Origin: Alphaproteobacteria bacterium
Lineage (GTDB): Bacteria; Pseudomonadota; Alphaproteobacteria; Rs-D84; NBLK01
Assembly: GCA_016937865.1 (NCBI GenBank)
Contig: JAFGVS010000016.1
Location: 1 to 51,928 of the forward strand
Reading direction: 5' to 3'
DNA length: 51,928 nt
Below, in pieces: positions 2,253-50,097 of the stretch; within the stretch, counting starts at the first letter, position 1, and every line of letters starts with the position of its first letter. Position numbers and translations under genes: made by a program. The notes under the pieces were generated by a model, which saw only the letters and a program-made list of their open reading frames with translations, did no database searches and had not been told where the DNA came from.

Positions 2253-2277
2253 AAACGCCGAAAGGCGTTTATTTTTT
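2253..2277 (+). terminator. Rho-independent terminator after accA
   Basis: aaacgcc-gaaa-ggcgttt hairpin followed by a T-run. Confidence 0.7.
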
Positions 2278-2429
2278 CCGTATTTCTGTGGGAAATTAAT
2301 TCTATGGACGCTATGCGTGATTTTTCGGACATCATTCGATGTACCCCAACGTACATCTTCGTCCTTAAATCACGTCTTTCGTCTCATATAACTGTTCGCG
2401 ATGCGAACTTTAATTTCGTTTTTTTGCGG
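2276..2429 (+). repeat. Dispersed structured repeat, copy 1 (subfamily A)
   Basis: Shares ...GGAAATTAAT...GTGATTTTTCGGACATCATTCGATGTACCCCAACGTACATCTTCGTCCTTAAATCAC...TTTAATTTCG... with the copies at 9188, 16617, 18491 and 45333. Confidence 0.85.
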
Positions 2430-4936: not shown

Positions 4937-4964
4937 TAAAATCCCGCAATTGCGGGATTTTTTT
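4937..4964. terminator. Bidirectional terminator with perfect palindrome ATCCCGCAATTGCGGGAT
   Basis: The 18-nt perfect palindrome is flanked by an A-run and a T-run, between convergent rpmB and the 4963..5529 gene. The identical core recurs at 12535-12552. Confidence 0.75.
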
Positions 4965-8611: not shown

Positions 8612-9184
8612 TTAACTCATCCAATATATGATGATTCCGAGCAAGATGCAACCTAAAATGAAGAAAAATTCTAGTCGTTTTTCAATAAAGGTACGTGCTT
8701 TCTCTCCATATTTAAATAATAACCATGCAATGAGATAAAAACGTAGAAAGCGGCTGATGATAGAAGCCATAATAAAAACAACTGGTTGGGTTTGTACCAT
8801 TCCACTAAATAAGGCAATGACTTTATAAGGGAAAGGGGTTAATCCGGAAATAAATATGAAAAGGGCATCCCATTGTGCATAGATATTTGCGATTTCATTA
8901 AATACAGGCATTAAGTTTAGACTGTTTAAAATTGGGGTGCCGAGTAAAACGAAGAACCATCTTCCAACGGCATATCCTGCTATTCCACCGAGCACCGACC
9001 AAAAACTGGCGACAAAAGCAGCGCGAAAAGAATTTTTAGGCACGGTTAAACAGATTGGGATCAGCAGCATTTCAGAGGGAAAGGGTGAAAAAATGGATCC
9101 AAAAAAGGAGATGATCCCCAGGAAAAAGAGGGCATGTGGCTTTTGGGCATGGGATATAAAAAAATCATAGATTTTTTTAAGCAT
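8612..9184 (-). CDS. YqaA/DedA-family inner membrane protein
   Basis: Multi-pass membrane protein (FFGSIFSPFPSEMLLIP...). The ORF-track start at 9280 runs into repeat copy 2. ATG 9184 (MLKKIYDFF) has AGGAGA upstream. Confidence 0.7.
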   Translation of the reverse strand: MLKKIYDFFISHAQKPHALFFLGIISFFGSIFSPFPSEMLLIPICLTVPKNSFRAAFVASFWSVLGGIAGYAVGRWFFVLLGTPILNSLNLMPVFNEIANIYAQWDALFIFISGLTPFPYKVIALFSGMVQTQPVVFIMASIISRFLRFYLIAWLLFKYGEKARTFIEKRLEFFFILGCILLGIIIYWMS

Positions 9185-9187
9185 CTT

Positions 9188-9335
9188 ATTTCTCCTGGAA
9201 ATGCATTCTGTGGATGCTATATGTGATTTTTCGGACATCATTCGATGTACCTTATGTACATCTTCGTCCTTAAATCGCACCTATTATCTCACATAACCAC
9301 GAACTGTCGTTCGTTTCCATTTCACCTTGTTTTTG
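9188..9335 (+). repeat. Dispersed structured repeat, copy 2 (subfamily A)
   Basis: Aligns with copy 1 over nearly the whole length, including GTGATTTTTCGGACATCATTCGATGTACC..ATGTACATCTTCGTCCTTAAATCGC. Confidence 0.85.
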
Positions 9336-9381
9336 TTTTGAGATTTTCGTTTTTTACTTTTGTTTACAGTTTTTATTTTTC

Positions 9382-9615
9382 TTAATTTTTTGTTGGCATG
9401 TCGCCTTTTGATTCGATGAATTTAAATCGTGGGACGGTTTGACCTTTATATTCTACTGTTTCTAAAAACATGTTTTTTGGACGTGCCCATAGTTTACCAT
9501 CGTGTGTATAGATGACGAATTCTTCCAATGTTTCAGAATGAAACGCGCTGCCAATAACAACACAGTCATGACCTTTGTAATGAAGGTATCTTCCCCACAA
9601 GACAACATCTTCCAT
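9382..9615 (-). CDS. DUF1653-like small protein
   Basis: GRYLHYKG...VIGSAFHSETLEEFVIY...LWARPKNMFLETVE...VPRFKFI matches the remembered DUF1653 pattern. The ATG at 9615 overlaps the bamD stop as TAATG. An alternative ATG lies at 9642. Confidence 0.65.
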   Translation of the reverse strand: MEDVVLWGRYLHYKGHDCVVIGSAFHSETLEEFVIYTHDGKLWARPKNMFLETVEYKGQTVPRFKFIESKGDMPTKN

Positions 9616-10337
9616 TATAGTTCCTTCACTTTTTTTGTCCATTTTGAGTCGGGATGGTTGATTTCCAGCAATTTTTGCATGACGGCGGCTTGGTCTGGCA
9701 AATGGATGGCGGTATAAATTTCAGCCATACGGTAGAGCGCTTCTTCACGCATAATGCTTTTTGGGAAGGTTGTGAGCACCAGTTGAAAGCGTTTTAGTGC
9801 CGCAAGGTGGTTTTCTTCTTTTAGAAGTTTCCGTGCAATAAACATTTCTTTTCCGGCGAGATAATTTTTTAACATGATAATTTTAGCTTCCACATTTTTA
9901 GTATATGGACTTTTGGGAAAGCGTTCTGTTAACAGTTCCATGGTTTTTAAAGCTTCGATTGTTGCGTGTTGTTCCCGACGCACGTCTGAAATTTCATTGT
10001 AATAAATCATCGATTTTAGATATAAAGCATAATCTACATTTTTGTGGGCAGGATGTAATTTTAGAAAATGATCTAAGGCGTCAATCGCCTCGACATGTTT
10101 ATCTCCTTTGAAATAGGCATAGGCCGTCATATACATCCCTTGTGCAGCCATCTCTGATTCAGGGTGTTGGCGTTCGATTTCAGTGAATTCCATGGCGGCG
10201 GCATTCCAATTAGTGTCGTCTAGATATTCTTGTGCCTGAGCATAGATTTCTTCTACGGAACGCTCTTTATATTCTGGGCGATCTGGGCCACAGGCCGTTA
10301 ATAAAATTAAAGAAAGCAGAATTGTTAATTTTTTCAT
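9615..10337 (-). CDS. bamD: Outer membrane protein assembly factor BamD (lipoprotein, TPR)
   Basis: Lipobox LLTAC, TPR-like body, about 240 aa. Confidence 0.85.
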   Translation of the reverse strand: MKKLTILLSLILLTACGPDRPEYKERSVEEIYAQAQEYLDDTNWNAAAMEFTEIERQHPESEMAAQGMYMTAYAYFKGDKHVEAIDALDHFLKLHPAHKNVDYALYLKSMIYYNEISDVRREQHATIEALKTMELLTERFPKSPYTKNVEAKIIMLKNYLAGKEMFIARKLLKEENHLAALKRFQLVLTTFPKSIMREEALYRMAEIYTAIHLPDQAAVMQKLLEINHPDSKWTKKVKEL

Positions 10338-12527: not shown

Positions 12528-12559
12528 GAAAAAAATCCCGCAATTGCGGGATTTTTTTT
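12528..12559. terminator. Bidirectional terminator with the same ATCCCGCAATTGCGGGAT palindrome
   Basis: Core at 12535-12552 is identical to 4941-4958. The T-run overlaps the stop codon of the convergent gene, as at 4963. Confidence 0.75.
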
Positions 12560-16574: not shown

Positions 16575-16607
16575 AAAAAGAGTGGAATATATCCACTCTT
16601 TTTTTAT
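16575..16607 (+). terminator. Rho-independent terminator after rpsI
   Basis: aaaaagagtgga-atata-tccactcttttt. Confidence 0.75.
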
Positions 16608-16616
16608 TAATAATCT

Positions 16617-16760
16617 TTCCGTATTCTGTGGGAAATTAATCCTGGCTGTGTAAATTGCCGTTACGCGGACATCATTCGATGTACCCCAACGTACATCTTC
16701 GTCCTAAAACGACAATATCCCCTGGTCATCACCACTACGTTTTAATTTCGTTGTGTTGCG
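16617..16760 (+). repeat. Dispersed structured repeat, copy 3 (subfamily B)
   Basis: TTCCGTATTCTGTGGGAAATTAAT...GCCGTTACGCGGACATCATTCGATGTACCCCAACGTACATCTTCGTCCTAAAACGAC...TTTTAATTTCGTTGTGTTGCG. Confidence 0.85.
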
Positions 16761-16775
16761 AGTTTTTCTTTTTGA

Positions 16776-17315
16776 CTAGTTGTTTTTTTGTTTCGTACTT
16801 TTTATAGTAGAGGTATTATTGGATATAATATCAACCTTTAATGAGTTGTTGTTTTCCAGTAAGTTAATAAGTAATTCATTTATATGATATTGTTTGTTTT
16901 CTCTTTCTGCCCAGCCTTGTGGAGCATAGCCTCCACTCATAATGTCTGTTTGTTCTATATTTTTAAAACCAAGGCATTTTCCAACTTCACTTAATAATTT
17001 TGTTGTTAATATGTCCCATTCATAAGTTATTTGATATTTTTCTTCATCATTATGCCATCTTTTTATTAAACTTTCATATAATCTTTTCCACGCAGAAATT
17101 ACACTTTTGTCATCATAGAACTCAACCTCAATTAAGTTGAGGGCTGCCACAAAATCAAAAGATAGCTTATTTCTTCTATCTCTCATTAAAGCTCTAAAAA
17201 TCTGCAATCGCATATCTTTTTTACTTCTTCTATTATCAAGCCAACGAGTAATTATAACTGCTAAAATTGGCCCAACAATAACAGCAGCAGTCATTATTAT
17301 GTTTTCATTTGTCAT
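16776..17315 (-). CDS. Hypothetical N-terminally anchored protein (179 aa), very AT-rich
   Basis: ORF with one N-terminal TM (AAVIVGPILAVIITRWL). No family recognised with confidence. Confidence 0.55.
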   Translation of the reverse strand: MTNENIIMTAAVIVGPILAVIITRWLDNRRSKKDMRLQIFRALMRDRRNKLSFDFVAALNLIEVEFYDDKSVISAWKRLYESLIKRWHNDEEKYQITYEWDILTTKLLSEVGKCLGFKNIEQTDIMSGGYAPQGWAERENKQYHINELLINLLENNNSLKVDIISNNTSTIKSTKQKNN

Positions 17316-18484: not shown

Positions 18485-18490
18485 AATTTT

Positions 18491-18669
18491 TATTCTCCTG
18501 GAAATTAATTTTATGGGTATACATTGCCGTTGTCGCGGGCTGCATGCGATGTACCATATGTACCGGTCGTTTGAAAATTACATCCCCCAGATATAATTTT
18601 TGCACCGATGGCCCTAAAACGACAATCTATTCTCCATAACAGCGCTTTGCTTTAATTTCGCTTTGTTGC
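18491..18669 (+). repeat. Dispersed structured repeat, copy 4 (subfamily B, with an internal extra segment of roughly 40 nt)
   Basis: The ends match copies 3 and 5 (TTCTCCTGGAAATTAATTTTATGGGTATACATTGCCGTT... and ...CCTAAAACGACAAT...GCTTTAATTTCGCTTTGTTGC). The centre is diverged or expanded. Confidence 0.8.
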
Positions 18670-18676
18670 TTGTTTT

Positions 18677-23691: not shown

Positions 23692-23704
23692 GAACGTAAA
23701 GAAA

Positions 23705-24004
23705 TTATTTTTTCTTTGTTGTTTTTTTAGCAACGGGCTTTTTTGCTGTTGCTTTTTTAGCCACTGGCTTTTTAGCAACAGGTTTTTTAGTTGTTGTTTT
23801 TTTAGCAACTGGTGCTTTTTTCACAGATGGTTTCGTTGTTTTCTTTGCGTCAGATTTTGTTTTGACGGGCTCGTCTTTTAAGCCTGTTTTAAAGGCTTTA
23901 ATGCCTTTTGCAAAGTCAGCCATTAGTGTGGATATTTTTCCAGATCCAAATAAAAGAACAACGATTACAAGAATTAAAAGTAGTTCCCAAAAGTGTGGCA
24001 TCAT
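23705..24004 (-). CDS. tatA: Twin-arginine translocase subunit TatA/E with a Lys-rich repeat tail
   Basis: [36 protein letters not shown] is the TatA TM plus amphipathic helix. It is followed by a tail of about 50 aa of KKPVAKK-type repeats. Confidence 0.85.
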
Positions 24005-40015: not shown

Positions 40016-40132
40016 AAAATGGCCATCTAAAGAGCGCCGTATATGTATTATAAATTGTATTTCAAAAATAGAATTTGATTTTAGTCTTAAGATGTACTAT
40101 GCTTTTTGTATCAACTAAAAAAGGAGAAGAAG

Positions 40133-40747
40133 ATGTTAAAAAAATTGTTTTTTCTAGGTATTCCACTTGGTATTCTAACGGCTCTTATTGGATGGGCAAC
40201 CTGTGGTAATTTGTTTAATTGGATTTATCAAATTGATCCAACCTATATTTGGCTATCGCCTCTTGAGATGAATATCCCGTTGATTTGGGGTTCTAGCATT
40301 ATTTCAGCGATGATTATGGTATTTGCGTTTGGTGTTGTTAAAGATAAGATGTCTCAAAAATGTCGTATTGCACGTGGTTTATCTTTTGGATTATTGATTT
40401 GGTTGGTTGCGATTGTGCCAACTGAAATGTCTGCCTTCCTTTATACTGTGACTGCGGATGAAGTTATTCTATATCATTTGATTTTGGGACTTGTTATGTC
40501 TGTTTTACAAGGGATCTTTATTTCTGTTCTTTATGACGAAGCTCTTCCACTTGGATGTTGTTCTGATAATTGTAAAGTTGCTGCTCCGAAAGCTGTTTCA
40601 AAACCTGTTGTTAAAACGAAGGTAAAAGCATCGCCTAAACCGAAAGCAAAAGCCAAAGTTCAAGCAAAACCTGTTGTTAAAACAAAGGTAAAAGCATCGC
40701 CTAAACCAAAGGCAAAAGCCAAAGCCGCACAGAAGAAAAAGAAATAA
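40133..40747 (+). CDS. Hypothetical polytopic membrane protein with a Lys/Ala/Pro-rich repeat tail
   Basis: ATG at 40133 (MLKKLFFLGIPLGIL) with GGAGAAG upstream. About 4 TM segments. The tail is KPVVKTKVKASPKPKAKAK repeated twice. Confidence 0.6.
   Translation: MLKKLFFLGIPLGILTALIGWATCGNLFNWIYQIDPTYIWLSPLEMNIPLIWGSSIISAMIMVFAFGVVKDKMSQKCRIARGLSFGLLIWLVAIVPTEMSAFLYTVTADEVILYHLILGLVMSVLQGIFISVLYDEALPLGCCSDNCKVAAPKAVSKPVVKTKVKASPKPKAKAKVQAKPVVKTKVKASPKPKAKAKAAQKKKK
40601..40724 (+). repeat. Tandem duplication, 66-nt period, 2 units (coding)
   Basis: aaacctgttgttaaaacGaaggtaaaagcatcgcctaaaccGaaAgcaaaagccaaag at 40601 recurs at 40667 with three substitutions. Confidence 0.85.
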
Positions 40748-45199: not shown

Positions 45200-45243
45200 C
45201 TTGAAAATTTTTTAAAGCTTTCTATAATGAGGGCTGTCTTTAT

Positions 45244-45325
45244 GGGAATGTGGCGGAACTGGTAGACGCGCCAGACTCAAAATCTGGTTTCTTCGGAAGT
45301 GGGAGTTCGATTCTCCCCATTCCCA
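45244..45325 (+). tRNA. tRNA-Leu (anticodon CAA)
   Basis: Hand-folded cloverleaf. Acceptor GGGAATG/CATTCCC. D-arm GCG-GAACTGGTAGA-CGC. Anticodon arm CCAGA-CTCAAAA-TCTGG. Long variable arm TTCTTCGGAAG. T-arm GGGAG-TTCGATT-CTCCC. No encoded CCA. Confidence 0.85.
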
Positions 45326-45332
45326 TTTTAAA

Positions 45333-45476
45333 TTCTTCGTTTCTATTGGAAATTAATCTTATGGGTATATATTGCCGTTTCGCGGACATCATTCGACGTA
45401 CCTCATGTACGTCTTCGTCCTAAAACGACAGTATCTTCTCCATAACACTACTACGTTTTAATTTCGTTTTGCTGCA
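45333..45476 (+). repeat. Dispersed structured repeat, copy 5 (subfamily B)
   Basis: Begins 8 nt after the tRNA-Leu. TTGGAAATTAATCTTATGGGTATATATTGCCGTTTCGCGGACATCATTCGACGTACCTCATGTACGTCTTCGTCCTAAAACGAC...TTTTAATTTCGTTTTGCTGC. Confidence 0.85.
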
Positions 45477-45790
45477 AAATCGCGATTTTTAACAAATGTG
45501 TTCTTGCAAACACTTTAGTTTGTCCAAACGGAATCACATCAAAATGGTGATATTCTTTTCCAATCACGTATCGACATACGCGACTGGAAAAATAAATCTG
45601 GTTTCAATGTACCTTTAAACAAAATTATTGAAAAATCTCAACACGTCTTGGGTCCTCGGGTTTTCTAGACGTATTTTTGGGTAAGTTTTTCGTACATTTC
45701 TTTTTTTATGTGTATATATAGTTTTTCTCTTTTTGATTTTTTTGTTTTTTGTGATATCTTCTTCGAAATACTCATTTAAAGGAGACGGAC

Positions 45791-45976
45791 ATGTCTAAGG
45801 AAAAAACAGAAAAGTCAACTGCACAAAAAATAGCAGAATTAAAAATAGAACAGGAAAAATTGTTGCAGGAGAATCCAAATCTTCCTCGATTTCGTGGGGC
45901 TATTGGTCTTGTTCAAAAAGAAACTGAAAAGACTTCTGAGGTTGTTAAAAAACGCAGGAATTTTCGCGCGGTTTAA
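45791..45976 (+). CDS. Hypothetical small basic protein (61 aa)
   Basis: AAAGGAG RBS 6 nt upstream of the ATG. No motif recognised. Confidence 0.4.
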   Translation: MSKEKTEKSTAQKIAELKIEQEKLLQENPNLPRFRGAIGLVQKETEKTSEVVKKRRNFRAV

Positions 45977-47065
45977 GCTTTTTTCATTAGCATTGCATTA
46001 AGGAATTCGTCGAGTTCGCCATCAAGGACCGCTTTGGGGTTAGAGCTTTCCACATTTGAACGTAAATCTTTAACCATTTGGTATGGATGCAAGACATAAG
46101 ATCTGATTTGATTTCCCCAGCCAATTTCGGTTTTATTGGCTTCAGATGCATTTTTTTCGGCCTGTTTTTCCCGCATTTCTTTTTCATATAAACGGCTTTT
46201 TAACATTTTAAAAGCGACTTCTTTATTGCGATGTTGGGAGCGTTCCATTTGGCATTGCACGACAATTTTGGTTGGGATATGGGTAATGCGCACCGCAGAA
46301 TCGGTTGTGTTTACATGTTGTCCACCTGCGCCGGACGCGCGATATGTGTCAATGCGGCAATCGGCCGGGTTAATTTCAATTTCAATGTTTTGATCGATGT
46401 CTGGGTAGACCCAAACAGAGGCAAAGGTCGTATGGCGTTTTGCATTTGAATCAAATGGGGAAATGCGCACCAGTCGGTGTATCCCGCTTTCGTGCTTTAG
46501 CCAACCATACGCGTTTTCACCTTTGATGTGTAAGGTGGTTGATTTTAGGCCGACTTCTTCGCCACTTTGTTCTTCGATGAGTAAAGCGGTATAGCCTTTT
46601 CGTTCGGCATAGCGCATATACATGCGTTGTAACATCAGTGCCCAATCACAGGATTCGGTGCCACCTGCGCCGGCGTGGATTTCGAGGAATGCATCTTCAG
46701 AATCTGCTTCTCCAGACAAAAAGGTTTCGATTTTGGCGTTTTGAAGGTCACTTACAAGTGTATTTGATTCGATATCGAGTTCTTTTAATAGATCTGTTTC
46801 GTTTTCTGTTTCCGCCAGATCACTCATTTCTTTTAGGGTATCGAAACGGTGCTTTAATGTGTTGAAGTTCTCTAGTTTTCGTTCAAGTGCTTTTTTTTCT
46901 TTTAGAACTTTTTGGCTGTTTTTAAGATCTTCCCAAAATTTAGGGGCTTCTGTTTTTTTATGGAGTGATTCAATTTCTGTTTTTAAAGAAATTGGGTCAA
47001 AGAAACCTCCCAAGCTCTGTGATTAGCTTTGAAGATTGGGTTAAATTTGTTTTTAGGTCTGACAT
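45973..47065 (-). CDS. prfB: Peptide chain release factor 2, with a programmed +1 frameshift
   Basis: Frame 0 reads MSDLKTNLTQSSKLITELGRFL from ATG 47065 and ends at CTT TGA C (TGA at 46999-46997), preceded by GGGAGG. The +1 frame continues DPISLKTEIE... through SPF and GGQHVN to 45973. Confidence 0.9.
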
Positions 47066-47163
47066 GTGATGCATGATATTTTATTTTGATATAAAAATCA
47101 ACTTTCTACTTGTTTTTGAAAAAAATACCTTTATTATTAAACGTAAGAGATAAAGGAGATCAC

Positions 47164-47529: not shown

Positions 47530-48246
47530 ATGATGCTTCCTATTTTTCCTTTTAAGGTTCATTTGAAAAACCGTCCTGCGCGGCGTTCTATTCGATTGCT
47601 TCGATGGATTGCTTTTGTTTTGACGGTTTTATTTACGATTAATGCTCTAATTGGTTTTGGTTTTTTGACTTTGCTTAAACAAAAAGAATTGTCGCCTCGC
47701 TTTGTTTCCTTTGATTCAAAATTGTCTTCTTTTCGTCTATTTTCAGCGGATTCTGTCCCAGGGAAAGTGGTAAAATCTGCCCGTGATGTTTTACGCGAAA
47801 AATTTGTTCGGGATTATGTTTTAAAACGAGAAATGTGGCAGTTGGATATGGCGAATAATCATCACCGATTGTGTGATTGTTTACAAGATGAGCGTGAAAA
47901 AAAATTGATTGAAAAGACACGAAATCGTACGGTTGAGCCACGGTGTAGTGTGTGTTTGATGTCAACGCAGGCTGTTTTTAAAGATTTTTTTGATAAGACG
48001 TATCCTGCTCGGAAAGAACGCTCTAAAGATAATTGGGTTCAATTGCCCTCTATTCGTACGGTTGAACTATACAAAATTATTCCACCGGAACGTGGTAAAG
48101 GGTTAACGTTGATTTATAAAATAGATTATGAAATCGAAGATCAATTGTGGCAGGCTTATGTTAGTGTGCGGGATCTTTTGAAACCGGATGAGTATCTTTT
48201 TCAGGTTGTGGATTACGGGATATTACCTTCTCCTTCTGAAAAATAA
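47530..48246 (+). CDS. Bitopic membrane protein, possibly VirB8/NTF2-like
   Basis: Short cytoplasmic N-terminus and one TM (WIAFVLTVLFTINALIGFGFLTL). Periplasmic domain with KELSPRFVSFD..., EKFVRDYVLKREMW and a C-terminal FQVVDYG. Confidence 0.55.
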   Translation: MMLPIFPFKVHLKNRPARRSIRLLRWIAFVLTVLFTINALIGFGFLTLLKQKELSPRFVSFDSKLSSFRLFSADSVPGKVVKSARDVLREKFVRDYVLKREMWQLDMANNHHRLCDCLQDEREKKLIEKTRNRTVEPRCSVCLMSTQAVFKDFFDKTYPARKERSKDNWVQLPSIRTVELYKIIPPERGKGLTLIYKIDYEIEDQLWQAYVSVRDLLKPDEYLFQVVDYGILPSPSEK

Positions 48247-48271
48247 AAATGGAATAAAAAAGAAAGATATT

Positions 48272-48934
48272 ATGAGTCGTTTATGGACCTTTTTATTTTC
48301 GCTGGTTGCACTTAGTGGGGTGCTTGTTTCCCTGTTTTTTGCGTATGGTATTTTTAAAGCTTTGTGGTTTGGGGATTATTATAGTTTGGTGCCGGCCTTT
48401 TTAAAACAAGATACGACGATTCAAGCGGTTTATCCTTCTAGCCCATCTTATATGACAAAAGCGCAAAAAAAACTTTTAGTTTCCCATTTAATAGAAGATT
48501 ATTTGGTCTATCGTTATACGATTTTACCAGATGATGATTTAATGGCACAACGTATGGGACAATGGTGGAGTGAACACAAGTCTCCTATTGATGCGCCGTA
48601 CGCGATTTGGGTTTCCCCCAATGAAAATGGTTCTGTTTGGCGGGGTTTTATTGATCCTGCGGGTGGGTTTGCGCCACGTGTTTTGCAATTGGTCAAAGAA
48701 GGAAAAACGCGCACGGTTGAAATTCTAAGTTCGCCTTATAAAGAGAAAGATTTCTGGAATGTGCGTTTAAAGCTTTATACATATGCGCCGGATACCGATC
48801 GTGTGACAATTTCTTATTTGAAAATTCAAATGGCGGTTTCTTTGGGGGATTTTATGCGCTCTTTTTCTGTCGCACAACTGAACCCGGCGCTGCTGTATAC
48901 GTTTAAAGTTGACTCTTTTAGAGAAGTCTATTAA
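48272..48934 (+). CDS. Bitopic membrane protein, paralogue-like partner of 47530..48246
   Basis: ATG 48272 (MSRLWTFLFSLVALSGVLVSLFF). HLIEDYLVYRYTI and a C-terminal LNPALLYTFKVDSFRE. The ORF track starts upstream at 48188, inside the previous gene. Confidence 0.55.
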   Translation: MSRLWTFLFSLVALSGVLVSLFFAYGIFKALWFGDYYSLVPAFLKQDTTIQAVYPSSPSYMTKAQKKLLVSHLIEDYLVYRYTILPDDDLMAQRMGQWWSEHKSPIDAPYAIWVSPNENGSVWRGFIDPAGGFAPRVLQLVKEGKTRTVEILSSPYKEKDFWNVRLKLYTYAPDTDRVTISYLKIQMAVSLGDFMRSFSVAQLNPALLYTFKVDSFREVY

Positions 48935-50097
48935 CGGTAAAGCGTATATCCCATTGTTTTTAATTTTACCAAAGGTAAGTAACCTGTGTTTTCTGGTACC
49001 GTTTTATATTCAATTTGTCCGTTTATATCCGTTAATAAGCTATGATCACTGAGGGCAATGTACTCCCCTTGGCTTTCTTGTGCTTTTAAGATCAATCCCT
49101 CTCCTGCGATGTGTTTCGATTTAAAATACGTCGTTGAATTATACGCAATATCCTGAAAAGCACTCATATGTGTATAGGGTAATACTTCGATTCCGTGTGG
49201 TACGGTTAGTTGTAAGCTTGTCCATGTATTTGGATTTGTCGTTGTATTTAGATCTTCTTGTTCGGTCGTATAAAAAATATCTAATTTCTCGCTTTTCCCT
49301 TTCATGATAAAAGGAATAATATTCGAATTTGTATCCGTTAAAACGGATCCAATGTATCTGTGTTTGCTGTAACTCCCAGAAACATTTAATAGATTTGTTG
49401 CATTTAAATCGGTGTCGAATCCGGCATCGATTTGTTTTGTTGTTGGATCACATAAAATAAACACATGATAGGTGGTTGAAGGTTGAGCTGTTAATGGGGC
49501 GGGCATGCCTCCTGTGTCAGACCCAGCCACCCAGGTTGCGTCTAATTTTTTTGTTAGTGCGCTGGATAATATCATGGAGGTTGTTTTGTCAGCGCTTTTC
49601 GCTTCGCCAGGGCTTACCGTAATATCATGATCTGCGTCTGTACTAAGTGATAATGTTAGCGCATTAATATAGCCGTTTGGCAATCCTTCAATTGAAGAAA
49701 GGGATGCTTTTAGTGTGGCGGGTGTGATGGCTTTCGATGTTTCGATGCCGGCTTGGGCTTCGGAAGTTGTGGCCAATTGAAGTACGCCTTTTTTGACTTC
49801 CGTTGCAATGGCCGTTGTCACTAGATTTGATAAATCGGTTTTTGCGATTCCACGTGCGGCAATATCTTCGCTGGCAATATTTGTCATGTCGGCGAGGGCA
49901 AGGCCGCGGGTTGCAAAGTTGGCGTCGGATACGTTGGATAGATCTTCACGGGCGAGCGGATATCCACCGGCTTTGGTGCCATCGTGGACTCGCACTGTTT
50001 CTTTATCTGTATCGACGGTAATTTCGCCTTCTAGACCTGTGAAAATGGCATGTTCCGAAGTTGTGCCGCGGCGCCATTGGACTGATTTTGTTGTCAT
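48931..50097 (-). CDS. Phage tail-fibre-like protein
   Basis: The N-terminus VQWRRGTTSEHAIFTGLEGEITVDTDKETVRVHDGTKAGGYPLA is a tail-fibre/Mtd_N-like motif. Also GVLQLATTSEAQAGIETSKAITPATL. AAGGA RBS. Confidence 0.65.
   Translation of the reverse strand: MTTKSVQWRRGTTSEHAIFTGLEGEITVDTDKETVRVHDGTKAGGYPLAREDLSNVSDANFATRGLALADMTNIASEDIAARGIAKTDLSNLVTTAIATEVKKGVLQLATTSEAQAGIETSKAITPATLKASLSSIEGLPNGYINALTLSLSTDADHDITVSPGEAKSADKTTSMILSSALTKKLDATWVAGSDTGGMPAPLTAQPSTTYHVFILCDPTTKQIDAGFDTDLNATNLLNVSGSYSKHRYIGSVLTDTNSNIIPFIMKGKSEKLDIFYTTEQEDLNTTTNPNTWTSLQLTVPHGIEVLPYTHMSAFQDIAYNSTTYFKSKHIAGEGLILKAQESQGEYIALSDHSLLTDINGQIEYKTVPENTGYLPLVKLKTMGYTLYR

Follow-up and report, generated by a model that had tools for sequence, protein, structure and literature searches.

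In a 51,928-nucleotide stretch of DNA from an Alphaproteobacteria bacterium (GenBank assembly GCA_016937865.1, contig JAFGVS010000016.1; GTDB lineage Rs-D84, NBLK01), hereafter the window, we characterized a structured repeat of about 145 bp that lies between genes in five copies of the same orientation. The analysis confirmed that this dispersed structured repeat is genuine and novel. Several diverged copies exist in one genome, and comparison with related metagenome-assembled genomes (MAGs) indicates that insertions of the element occurred at distinct sites from one lineage to another, one of them in frame in the hemW gene of a relative. Given the ~145-bp palindrome, the diverged copies, the intergenic sites, the in-frame insertion at a predicted surface loop and the fact that no transposase was seen, the element is probably a new lineage-specific family of non-autonomous palindromic repeats of the kind known as Rickettsia palindromic elements (RPEs), which also resembles the ERIC and Correia type of miniature inverted-repeat transposable element (MITE).

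Reading of the sequence, a MAFFT alignment of the copies and a covariance model built from the five window copies (R1, scanned over both strands with filters off) agreed on five homologous copies. R1 gave exactly five matches in the window, scoring 127-160 bits and all on the plus strand, and its runner-up on either strand reached only 17 bits; a second model that combined these copies with a homologue from another species (R2) recovered the same five. With bounds at most 1 nt wider than the R1 matches, the copies were delimited at 2280-2432, 9186-9338, 16619-16764, 18488-18674 and 45337-45480. All copies are intergenic according to the list of open reading frames (ORFs) and Pfam, they are 59-80% identical to one another in pairwise comparison, and they make up the sole substantial dispersed repeat family that a repeat finder reported in the window. 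The initial annotation had described five homologous, intergenic copies in one orientation, and its description was borne out by the covariance model, the alignment, the ORF list and Pfam, with coordinates that differ from the R1 matches by at most about 5 nt. The covariance-model scan that it had proposed returned, beyond the five plus-strand copies, homologues in two related MAGs. Copy 3 is also present in GCA_016930325.1 (labelled L001), and the window sequence recurs in that assembly and in Logan run SRR13394436; no recorded contig was seen to reach past either end of the window. The Logan contig of the same organism (L002, SRR13394436) stops at window position 16627, in the first bases of copy 3, as multi-copy repeats are wont to break assemblies.

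Searches of reference collections were negative for the element. Rfam left it unmatched over the whole window at gathering scores, returning tRNA-Leu alone, and gave only terminator-type noise for copies 1 and 3 at E ≤ 10, while BLAST against plasmids (PLSDB) found nothing relevant to it. The pattern GTACN{4,5}GGTACRTCGMATGNNGYCCG had no match in either genome_contigs or metagenome_contigs, and the pattern GTACRTCTTCGTCCTWAAA had 7 and 44 matches, respectively, none of which fitted the model; both patterns targeted the apical core, which proved species-specific. The outer part of the element follows the pattern TTCTNNNGGNNATTAAT ... CTTTAATYYC.

The two halves of the module pair with each other to form a single closed rod hairpin, modelled over 143-153 positions with 33-38 consensus pairs (RNAalifold). 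Its left end GGAAATTAAT and right end TTTAATTTCG are complementary via GAAATTAA/TTAATTTC, and since these end motifs pair, the whole element is one rod-like hairpin, an end-to-end pairing that the initial annotation had missed. Inwards from an A/T-rich 8-bp closing stem, the rod consists of a long interrupted middle stem, a GGAC/GTCC clamp, a conserved asymmetric internal loop with ATCATTC opposite TTC, a 7-bp apical stem and a variable loop. The closing stem (alignment columns 13-20 with 174-181) is 97.5% paired and has one compensated pair, from copy 2, where the stem reads GAAATGCA/TCCATTTC and a G-C pair stands in place of U-A; about 10-15 T-rich bases outside it are also conserved on each side. 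The motifs named earlier as shared were recovered: GGAAATTAAT is exact in four of five copies, with GGAAATGCAT in copy 2, and CATTCGATGTACC occurs with at most one mismatch in all five and nowhere else in the window at that level.

The copies fall into two subfamilies, A (copies 1 and 2) with GTGATTT/AAATCAC and B (copies 3, 4 and 5) with TTGCCGTT/AACGACAA, such that the sequence of the middle stem differs between subfamilies and its complementarity is kept. These subfamilies had been proposed before, together with a GGGC/GCCC change in copy 4 and a T.G pair in copy 2, and all of them are present. Kinship among the copies is mosaic: copy 1 resembles copy 3 in its left end and in the apical core, which is 98% identical between them, whereas its middle stem is that of copy 2 and differs from that of copy 3. 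A side hairpin in the 3' part is confined to subfamily A (its counterpart in copy 2 lies at 9299-9314); it is followed by TTTAATTTCGTTTTTTT and resembles an intrinsic terminator on the plus strand, and a terminator scan scored copies 1 and 2 as terminator-like on that strand. Copy 4 has a private insertion that forms a small hairpin of its own and whose sequence is unique within the window.

In the alignment of the window copies, standard pairs fill 94.2% of pair cells, and both partners have changed in 16 of the 38 pairs; none of 500 column shuffles reached these pairing and compensation values. When the partners were slid by 1-3 columns, 31-45% of cells paired and at most three pairs were compensated. 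Addition of the homologues from two relatives left 93.1% of cells paired and raised the compensated pairs to 18 of 33, again unmatched in 500 shuffles. The hairpin has been kept despite 20-40% divergence between copies. The initial annotation took such paired changes as a sign of selection on the fold; the paired changes are real, but an RNA function does not follow from them by itself, because a hairpin needed for mobility or template-switch correction would give the same pattern. Template-switch correction of the quasi-palindrome arms may accordingly be an alternative cause of the kept pairing.

To follow the element into other genomes, contigs of relatives were reached through HemW homologues, and the two closest relatives found were GCA_029935775.1 (L059, which matches Logan L060) and GCA_029935735.1 (L058). 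R1, which contains window copies only, matched L059:183-328 with 61.5 bits (E 1.6e-12) and L058:263-404 with 30.8 bits, and under R2 the two copies scored 127 and 83 bits. Both matches fall inside the hemW gene; they are on the strand with its coding sense, which corresponds to the minus orientation of the window. In L059, the hemW frame is open through the whole element and the other five frames are closed, so that the encoded HemW would be longer by an insert of 51 residues (SINEIKQSSG...PKINHQ), placed after the helix next to the CxxxCxxC motif on its C-terminal side and before the YFGGGTPS strand. A protein alignment showed that this insert is missing from six other HemW proteins, namely the window's own and five homologues; outside the insert, L059 HemW and the window HemW share 63% identity all the way to the C terminus. 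On a structural model of the window HemW (predicted local distance difference test score, pLDDT, 92) the insertion site maps to residues 42-49, a loop from helix 32-41 to strand 50-57, which places it in a predicted surface loop.

The in-gene copy has the rod architecture and the side hairpin of subfamily A, and both its closing stem and its middle stem show extra compensated pairs. The apical hairpin of this copy differs from that of the window copies, and a different hairpin occupies the place of the copy 1 core in the relatives' copies, from which the apical core appears to be species-specific. Since the L059 copy resembles subfamily A in its middle stem and side hairpin, whereas the window copy beside hemW belongs to subfamily B, the two are independent insertions. 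The element also misleads gene callers, which began the L059 and L058 proteins at an ATG within it, and the hemW calls of these relatives thereby lose the radical-SAM cysteine motif. Six-frame chimeric peptide queries for called proteins that contain the element had no match for the window copies and a single chance match, to a weevil protein, for the L059 and L058 copies. Among named organisms, the nearest HemW matches are about 36% identical.

Several other features of the relatives were recorded. A 15-bp duplication, TTAGATTCTCTCAAT, lies just 5' of the in-gene element in L059 and is missing in L058 (L059:150-182 compared with L058:240-262), and the 5' end of hemW in L059 (L059:1-60) is unlike that in L058. 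In L058, an exact 14-nt repeat, AATCACCAAGAGAA, has one copy before the ATG of hemW and another where the element ends, a marginal observation in A-rich DNA that was reproduced in 1 of 500 shuffles. The sequencing run of the window organism also contains a second, related alphaproteobacterium (L062/L063: GCA_016936785.1, SRR13394436) with a HemW 56% identical to that of the window and no copy of the element in 6.3 kb. Other palindromic repeats are found in copy-free relatives (L005:10908-10985, L003:356-606 and L005:10996-11050), one of them a perfect 29-bp inverted repeat, GTGAGATTCCTGCCTTCGCAGGAATGACA, and L003 and L005 have the motif TTTACCCC(G/T)CCCCAAAATAGTAA...CCCTCCCACAAGGGG in common. 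The clade thus seems to be generally rich in palindromic elements.

If the element is of the RPE kind, it would be selfish DNA that propagates, or did so in the past, through a hairpin-dependent mechanism, and the hairpin would be retained as propagating lineages need it. Copies would survive at sites of little harm, such as behind terminators, in spacers between cistrons, past a tRNA gene or within a surface loop of a protein. Their transcription would be passive, the window-minus sense being carried in host mRNAs, and the opposite sense, with T-rich sequence right behind the hairpin, would terminate transcription and be counter-selected within operons. The common orientation may then result from selection against the terminator-like plus sense inside operons. 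Two copies may have been co-opted to provide the Shine-Dalgarno sequence of a downstream gene. The initial annotation had left the choice between an RPE/MITE/REP-type element and a repeated structured RNA; the RPE/MITE side gained from the in-frame hemW homologue that six other HemW proteins lack, and the structured RNA side received no support from promoters or terminators.

Some observations weigh against a mobile element of this kind. First, the flanks of the five copies and of L058 and L059 showed no consistent target-site duplication; copy 4 only has a 9-nt GAATAAAAA on both sides, in A-rich DNA. Second, no transposase, REP-associated tyrosine transposase (RAYT) or insertion sequence (IS)-like gene is present in the window. 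Third, mobility rests on one presence/absence contrast, with seven copies known, and within that contrast the L058 element is interrupted by an N-run, the N-terminal segment of L059 hemW is without a canonical start codon, and the HemW fusion protein is a prediction from the reading frame. Fourth, about 55 kb from relatives with 56-58% HemW identity (L003, L004, L005, L061-L064) contained no copy, and neither did the pattern scans of public genomes and metagenomes, though those patterns were aimed at the species-specific apical core. Lastly, old copies (59-80% identical) with pairing kept could equally mean a function at the level of the host.

Comparison with known families favored the same assignment. 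RPEs are interspersed palindromic repeats of 100-150 bp that occur between genes and in protein-coding genes, often as in-frame fusions, with no associated transposase known (PMC1779305, PMC10969869). Like RPE-1 to RPE-10, the present element is a hairpin palindrome of 100-150 bp with several diverged copies per genome, it occurs both between genes and in frame in a gene whose ORF is kept open, no transposase was seen, and its alphaproteobacterial host is AT-rich. Hairpin-forming size, dispersed copies (five in 51.9 kb) and an in-frame insertion (L059 hemW), the features that define the RPE class, were all found. The host is recorded as an Alphaproteobacteria bacterium and not as Rickettsia, the likeness is one of behaviour, and there is a single in-gene case (hemW, in one lineage), whereas the five window copies are all intergenic and have stop codons in the minus frames. 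ERIC/IRU elements lie in transcribed intergenic regions and at the 3' ends of genes, affect mRNA according to their orientation and have occasional intragenic copies (PMC10969869). The repeat described here likewise is an imperfect palindrome of similar length, intergenic with an occasional intragenic copy, but its sequence is unrelated to that of the enterobacterial ERIC and two of its copies carry Shine-Dalgarno sequences for downstream genes. For ERIC, an influence on RNase E cleavage has been demonstrated by experiment, whereas the present element is known from sequence.

Correia elements (CREE/NEMIS) of Neisseria are MITEs of ~100-200 bp that form RNA hairpins, lie adjacent to genes and supply expression signals (PMC10969869). 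The element shares the hairpin, the gene-adjacent position and expression signals for neighbours; Correia elements differ by their long terminal inverted repeats, TA target duplication, integration host factor site and defined promoters, and here no target duplication is consistent and promoter-like hexamers are at chance level. Measured against a classical MITE, the element has terminal inverted repeats (GAAATTAA/TTAATTTC), but conservation runs ~10-15 nt beyond them, and a classical target-site duplication was rejected as it is not consistent over the copies. Repetitive extragenic palindromic (REP) sequences and the bacterial interspersed mosaic elements (BIMEs) they form are palindromes of 20-40 bp headed by GTAG or CGTC that frequently form inverted pairs and are linked to RAYT genes; located between cistrons and at the ends of operons, they have been proposed to stabilise mRNA and to act in termination (PMC3733652). 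Our element resembles them as an extragenic palindrome at operon ends and between cistrons, but its ~145-bp unit and the absence of a RAYT gene in the window led us to reject REP/BIME. Coordinates of the copies and their parts are collected in Table 1.

Table 1. Positions of the repeat copies, their structural parts and the associated ribosome-binding sites in the window
Feature	Position	Strand	Evidence and remarks
Copy 1 (subfamily A)	2280-2431	+ (modelled)	R1 135.3 bits, R2 147.4 bits
Copy 2 (subfamily A)	9186-9337	+	R1 135.9 bits, R2 144.2 bits
Copy 3 (subfamily B)	16620-16763	+	R1 148.1 bits, R2 148 bits
Copy 4 (subfamily B)	18489-18673	+	R1 126.8 bits, R2 124.5 bits
Copy 5 (subfamily B)	45337-45479	+	R1 160.4 bits, R2 152.7 bits
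Closing stem 5' arm GAAATTAA, copy 1	2292-2299		Pairs with 2410-2417; RNAalifold
Closing stem 3' arm TTAATTTC, copy 1	2410-2417		RNAalifold
Apical core, copy 1	2326-2364		GGAC / ATCATTC:TTC loop / GATGTAC-loop-GTACATC / GTCC; repeat finder
Side hairpin GTTCGC-GAT-GCGAAC, copy 1	2394-2408	+	Terminator scan, folds
Private ~41-nt insertion, copy 4, 3' arm of apical hairpin	18568-18608		Alignment gap
AGGAGA, putative Shine-Dalgarno of DedA-like gene (ATG 9184-9182; MLKKIYDFF)	9191-9196	-	Conserved left end of copy 2
AGGAGA, putative Shine-Dalgarno of hemW (TTG 18484-18482)	18494-18499	-	Conserved left end of copy 4

The window has a G+C content of 38%, and the neighbours of the element are housekeeping genes, accA, tsf, rpsI and hemW among them (ORF list; Pfam). 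Copy 1 sits between facing terminators, the accA hairpin (about 2253-2277) and that of tsf (about 2479-2506). Copy 2 is flanked by a DUF1653 gene (9382-9642, minus strand) and a DedA/VTT-domain gene (8612-9184, minus strand). Copy 3 follows the rpsI terminator (hairpin 16580-16598) and ends 12 nt short of the stop codon of the gene for a DUF6680 protein (16776-17315, minus strand). Copy 4 occupies the entire spacer from the stop of a NUDIX gene (18677) to the start of hemW (18484), and copy 5 starts 11 nt past tRNA-Leu(CAA) (45243-45326, plus strand; ARAGORN). Copies 2 and 4 thus lie between co-directional minus-strand genes (DUF1653 then DedA-like, NUDIX then hemW), and no divergent, promoter-bearing spacer holds any of the five copies. 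A 61-codon ORF at 45791-45976 (plus strand) with a good Shine-Dalgarno sequence, AAAGGAGA, was seen between copy 5 and prfB; it overlaps the prfB stop and is Pfam-negative, and should it be a true gene, copy 5 is bordered on its right by a gene that is not on the minus strand.

In copies 2 and 4, the three variable bases of the left end are CCT, so that the minus strand reads AGGAGA, at a spacing of 6 nt to the ATG of the DedA-like gene and 9 nt to the TTG of hemW. TTG is the only start codon in the window hemW ORF, and the N terminus of the encoded protein is 3-12 residues shorter than in homologues. This short N terminus and the AGGAGA spacing suggest that the ribosome-binding site of the next gene lies inside the end of the element in both copies.

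These positions also bear on the possibility that the element is a host-selected cis-acting RNA module in operon transcripts with mobility secondary or extinct, a reading compatible with an RPE-like origin that we regard as rather unlikely to be the better description. In the window-minus sense, such a module would lie in 3' untranslated regions (UTRs) or between cistrons and would protect the mRNA upstream of it against 3' exonucleases, shield the 5' end of the next cistron or be a site of processing, and it would bring along a portable ribosome-binding site; read the other way round, the module would be a one-way terminator against antisense or convergent read-through. Its appeal comes from pairing of 93-94% despite 20-40% divergence, from a minus-sense RNA that is more stable in six of six comparisons by 3-10 kcal/mol, from copies 2 and 4, which lie between co-directional minus-strand genes, end 1-5 nt short of a start codon and contain AGGAGA, from copy 3, which in the minus sense begins 12 nt past a stop codon, and from the terminator-like plus strand of copies 1 and 2; effects of such type have been published for Correia and ERIC (PMC10969869). 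On the other hand, transcription is not obvious for copy 1, between facing terminators, or for copy 5, ~490 nt from the nearest co-oriented gene, the G.T and A.C counts (8 and 10) give no strand asymmetry, a UTR device would hardly be expected inside a coding sequence, as one copy is, and the apical core is unconserved between species.

The initial annotation had read the T.G pair of copy 2 as a sign of a plus-strand RNA, which did not hold. When the left arm was compared with the reverse complement of the right, G.T oppositions (wobbles on the plus strand) numbered 8 and A.C oppositions (wobbles on the minus strand) 10, and strand assignment by wobble counts was dropped as carrying no signal. 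RNA folding energy was lower on the minus strand in all five window copies, by 3-10 kcal/mol, and in the L059 copy (-35.8 in the window-minus sense versus -28.7 kcal/mol), six comparisons that are not independent as the copies share loops. The sense of the in-gene copy, too, is window-minus.

A family of trans-acting small RNA (sRNA) genes expressed from the plus strand, the alternative first drawn from that T.G pair, is therefore very improbable and has the least support of the rivals. Multi-copy structured sRNA families do occur in bacteria, a T-rich tract ends the plus strand after the closing stem, and copies 1 and 2 have the terminator-like side hairpin. However, conservation does not extend beyond about 12-16 nt upstream of the closing stem, and since copies 1 and 3 directly follow terminators and copy 5 starts 11 nt past a tRNA gene, there is no room for a shared promoter. 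Promoter-like sites in the scan were not in excess (57 versus 54.8 in shuffled sequence); an internal outward promoter was likewise rejected, TAnnAT-like hexamers preceding the closing stem in all five copies with a poor -35 in a scan at chance level. The plus strand shows no wobble excess and folds less well, the apical loop is variable and no single-stranded seed is conserved, the relatives have their homologue within an ORF that runs antisense to the plus orientation, and Rfam has no match. On the missing upstream conservation, the abutting terminators and tRNA gene, and the chance level of promoters, trans-acting sRNA genes were rejected as a class.

The shared orientation raised a different possibility. 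GC skew is positive and AT skew negative throughout the window, so that the plus strand has a leading-strand-like composition and all copies are oriented alike with respect to replication. If the element were the relic of a single-strand DNA transposon (IS200/IS605-type, or REP/BIME with RAYT) or its non-autonomous partner, strand-specific insertion into the lagging-strand template would account for co-orientation on the G- and T-rich strand, and target-site duplications would be expected to be absent. A hairpin is also the recognition feature for IS608 TnpA and RAYTs, and the element offers one. We nevertheless judge this quite improbable. Five co-oriented copies arise by chance with a probability of 1/16, and the element is one 145-bp hairpin with complementary ends, not two subterminal hairpins or a REP of 20-40 bp. 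In IS200/IS605-type elements each end has a subterminal hairpin of its own, the ends are not inverted, and the left end directly adjoins a conserved target tetranucleotide. Here no conserved tetranucleotide abuts the end, which reads as an invariant TTCT, three variable bases and then the closing stem. As single-stranded DNA, moreover, the rod is weaker, and in copy 3 it is indistinguishable from shuffled sequence (z -1.3 and -0.9). A check for a cognate transposase, suggested at the outset, found none: Pfam detected no transposase (Y1 transposase included), RAYT, IS-like gene or integrase among the 57 window ORFs. The IS200/IS605 type was thus rejected for its mismatch with a single hairpin, complementary ends, a TTCT set three bases off the stem and no TnpA in the window.

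The remaining candidates were set aside on features of the element itself. Integron attC sites have R''/R' core sites (RYYYAAC ... GTTRRRY) and lie in arrays of gene cassettes; the ends found here are GGAAATTAAT and TTTAATTTCG, and the neighbours are housekeeping genes. Neither a conserved ORF nor a start codon is common to the six-frame translations of the five copies, and a type I toxin-antitoxin repeat or small ORF was therefore rejected; CRISPR, tRNA-derived and 6S-like readings were ruled out by sequence and by the absent Rfam match. The GAAUGA:AA internal loop (minus sense) fits neither the K-turn nor the loop-E consensus, and it is missing in the relatives' copy.

Several other features of the window were recorded. 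First, an identical 27-nt palindromic terminator, AAAATCCCGCAATTGCGGGATTTTTTT, occurs at 4938-4964 and 12529-12555, each time between convergent genes, and a close variant, AAAAAATCCCCAATCGGGGATT, follows tsf (about 2479-2506); together they form a second, very short family of repeated hairpins. Second, the region upstream of prfB (45973-47013, minus strand) reads GGGAGG TTT CTT TGA CCC at 46995-47075 (minus strand), which matches the classical site of programmed +1 frameshifting in release factor 2, Shine-Dalgarno-like element included, and a short ORF starting ATG CAT CAC ATG precedes it. Third, a 388-residue protein (48931-50097, minus strand) has a Pfam Mtd_N domain (major tropism determinant N-terminal, E 7.7e-14) and could be a phage tail-fibre-like protein or the target of a diversity-generating retroelement; no reverse transcriptase was seen in the window, and the two ORFs upstream of the gene (47530-48246 and 48188-48934) are Pfam-negative. 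Lastly, tandem repeats are found at 40599-40724 (a 66-bp unit twice, 95% identical, in the lysine-rich tail of the ORF 40106-40747) and at 23694-23813 (15-bp periodicity, in the tail of the TatA-like ORF 23705-24004), and paralogy within the window is limited to an OmpA domain common to two ORFs.

To our knowledge, palindromes inserted in frame in protein-coding genes are documented almost entirely from Rickettsia. If the repeat described here is an unrelated-looking family in another, uncultured alphaproteobacterial lineage, then the phenomenon would not be peculiar to Rickettsia. Features of note in this family are a copy in a radical-SAM enzyme, two ribosome-binding sites that the element appears to supply and a strong compensatory structure, and it would offer a second system for a search for the enzyme that mobilises such repeats and for deciding between DNA and RNA as the level at which the hairpin matters. 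It is unlikely that the host has domesticated the element as an orientation-dependent expression module or that it is moved by a hairpin-specific enzyme. In the former case, one sense would let transcription pass, buffer mRNA ends and give a ribosome-binding site, and the other would terminate; in the latter, such an enzyme, if found in this lineage, would explain transposition of the RPE type.

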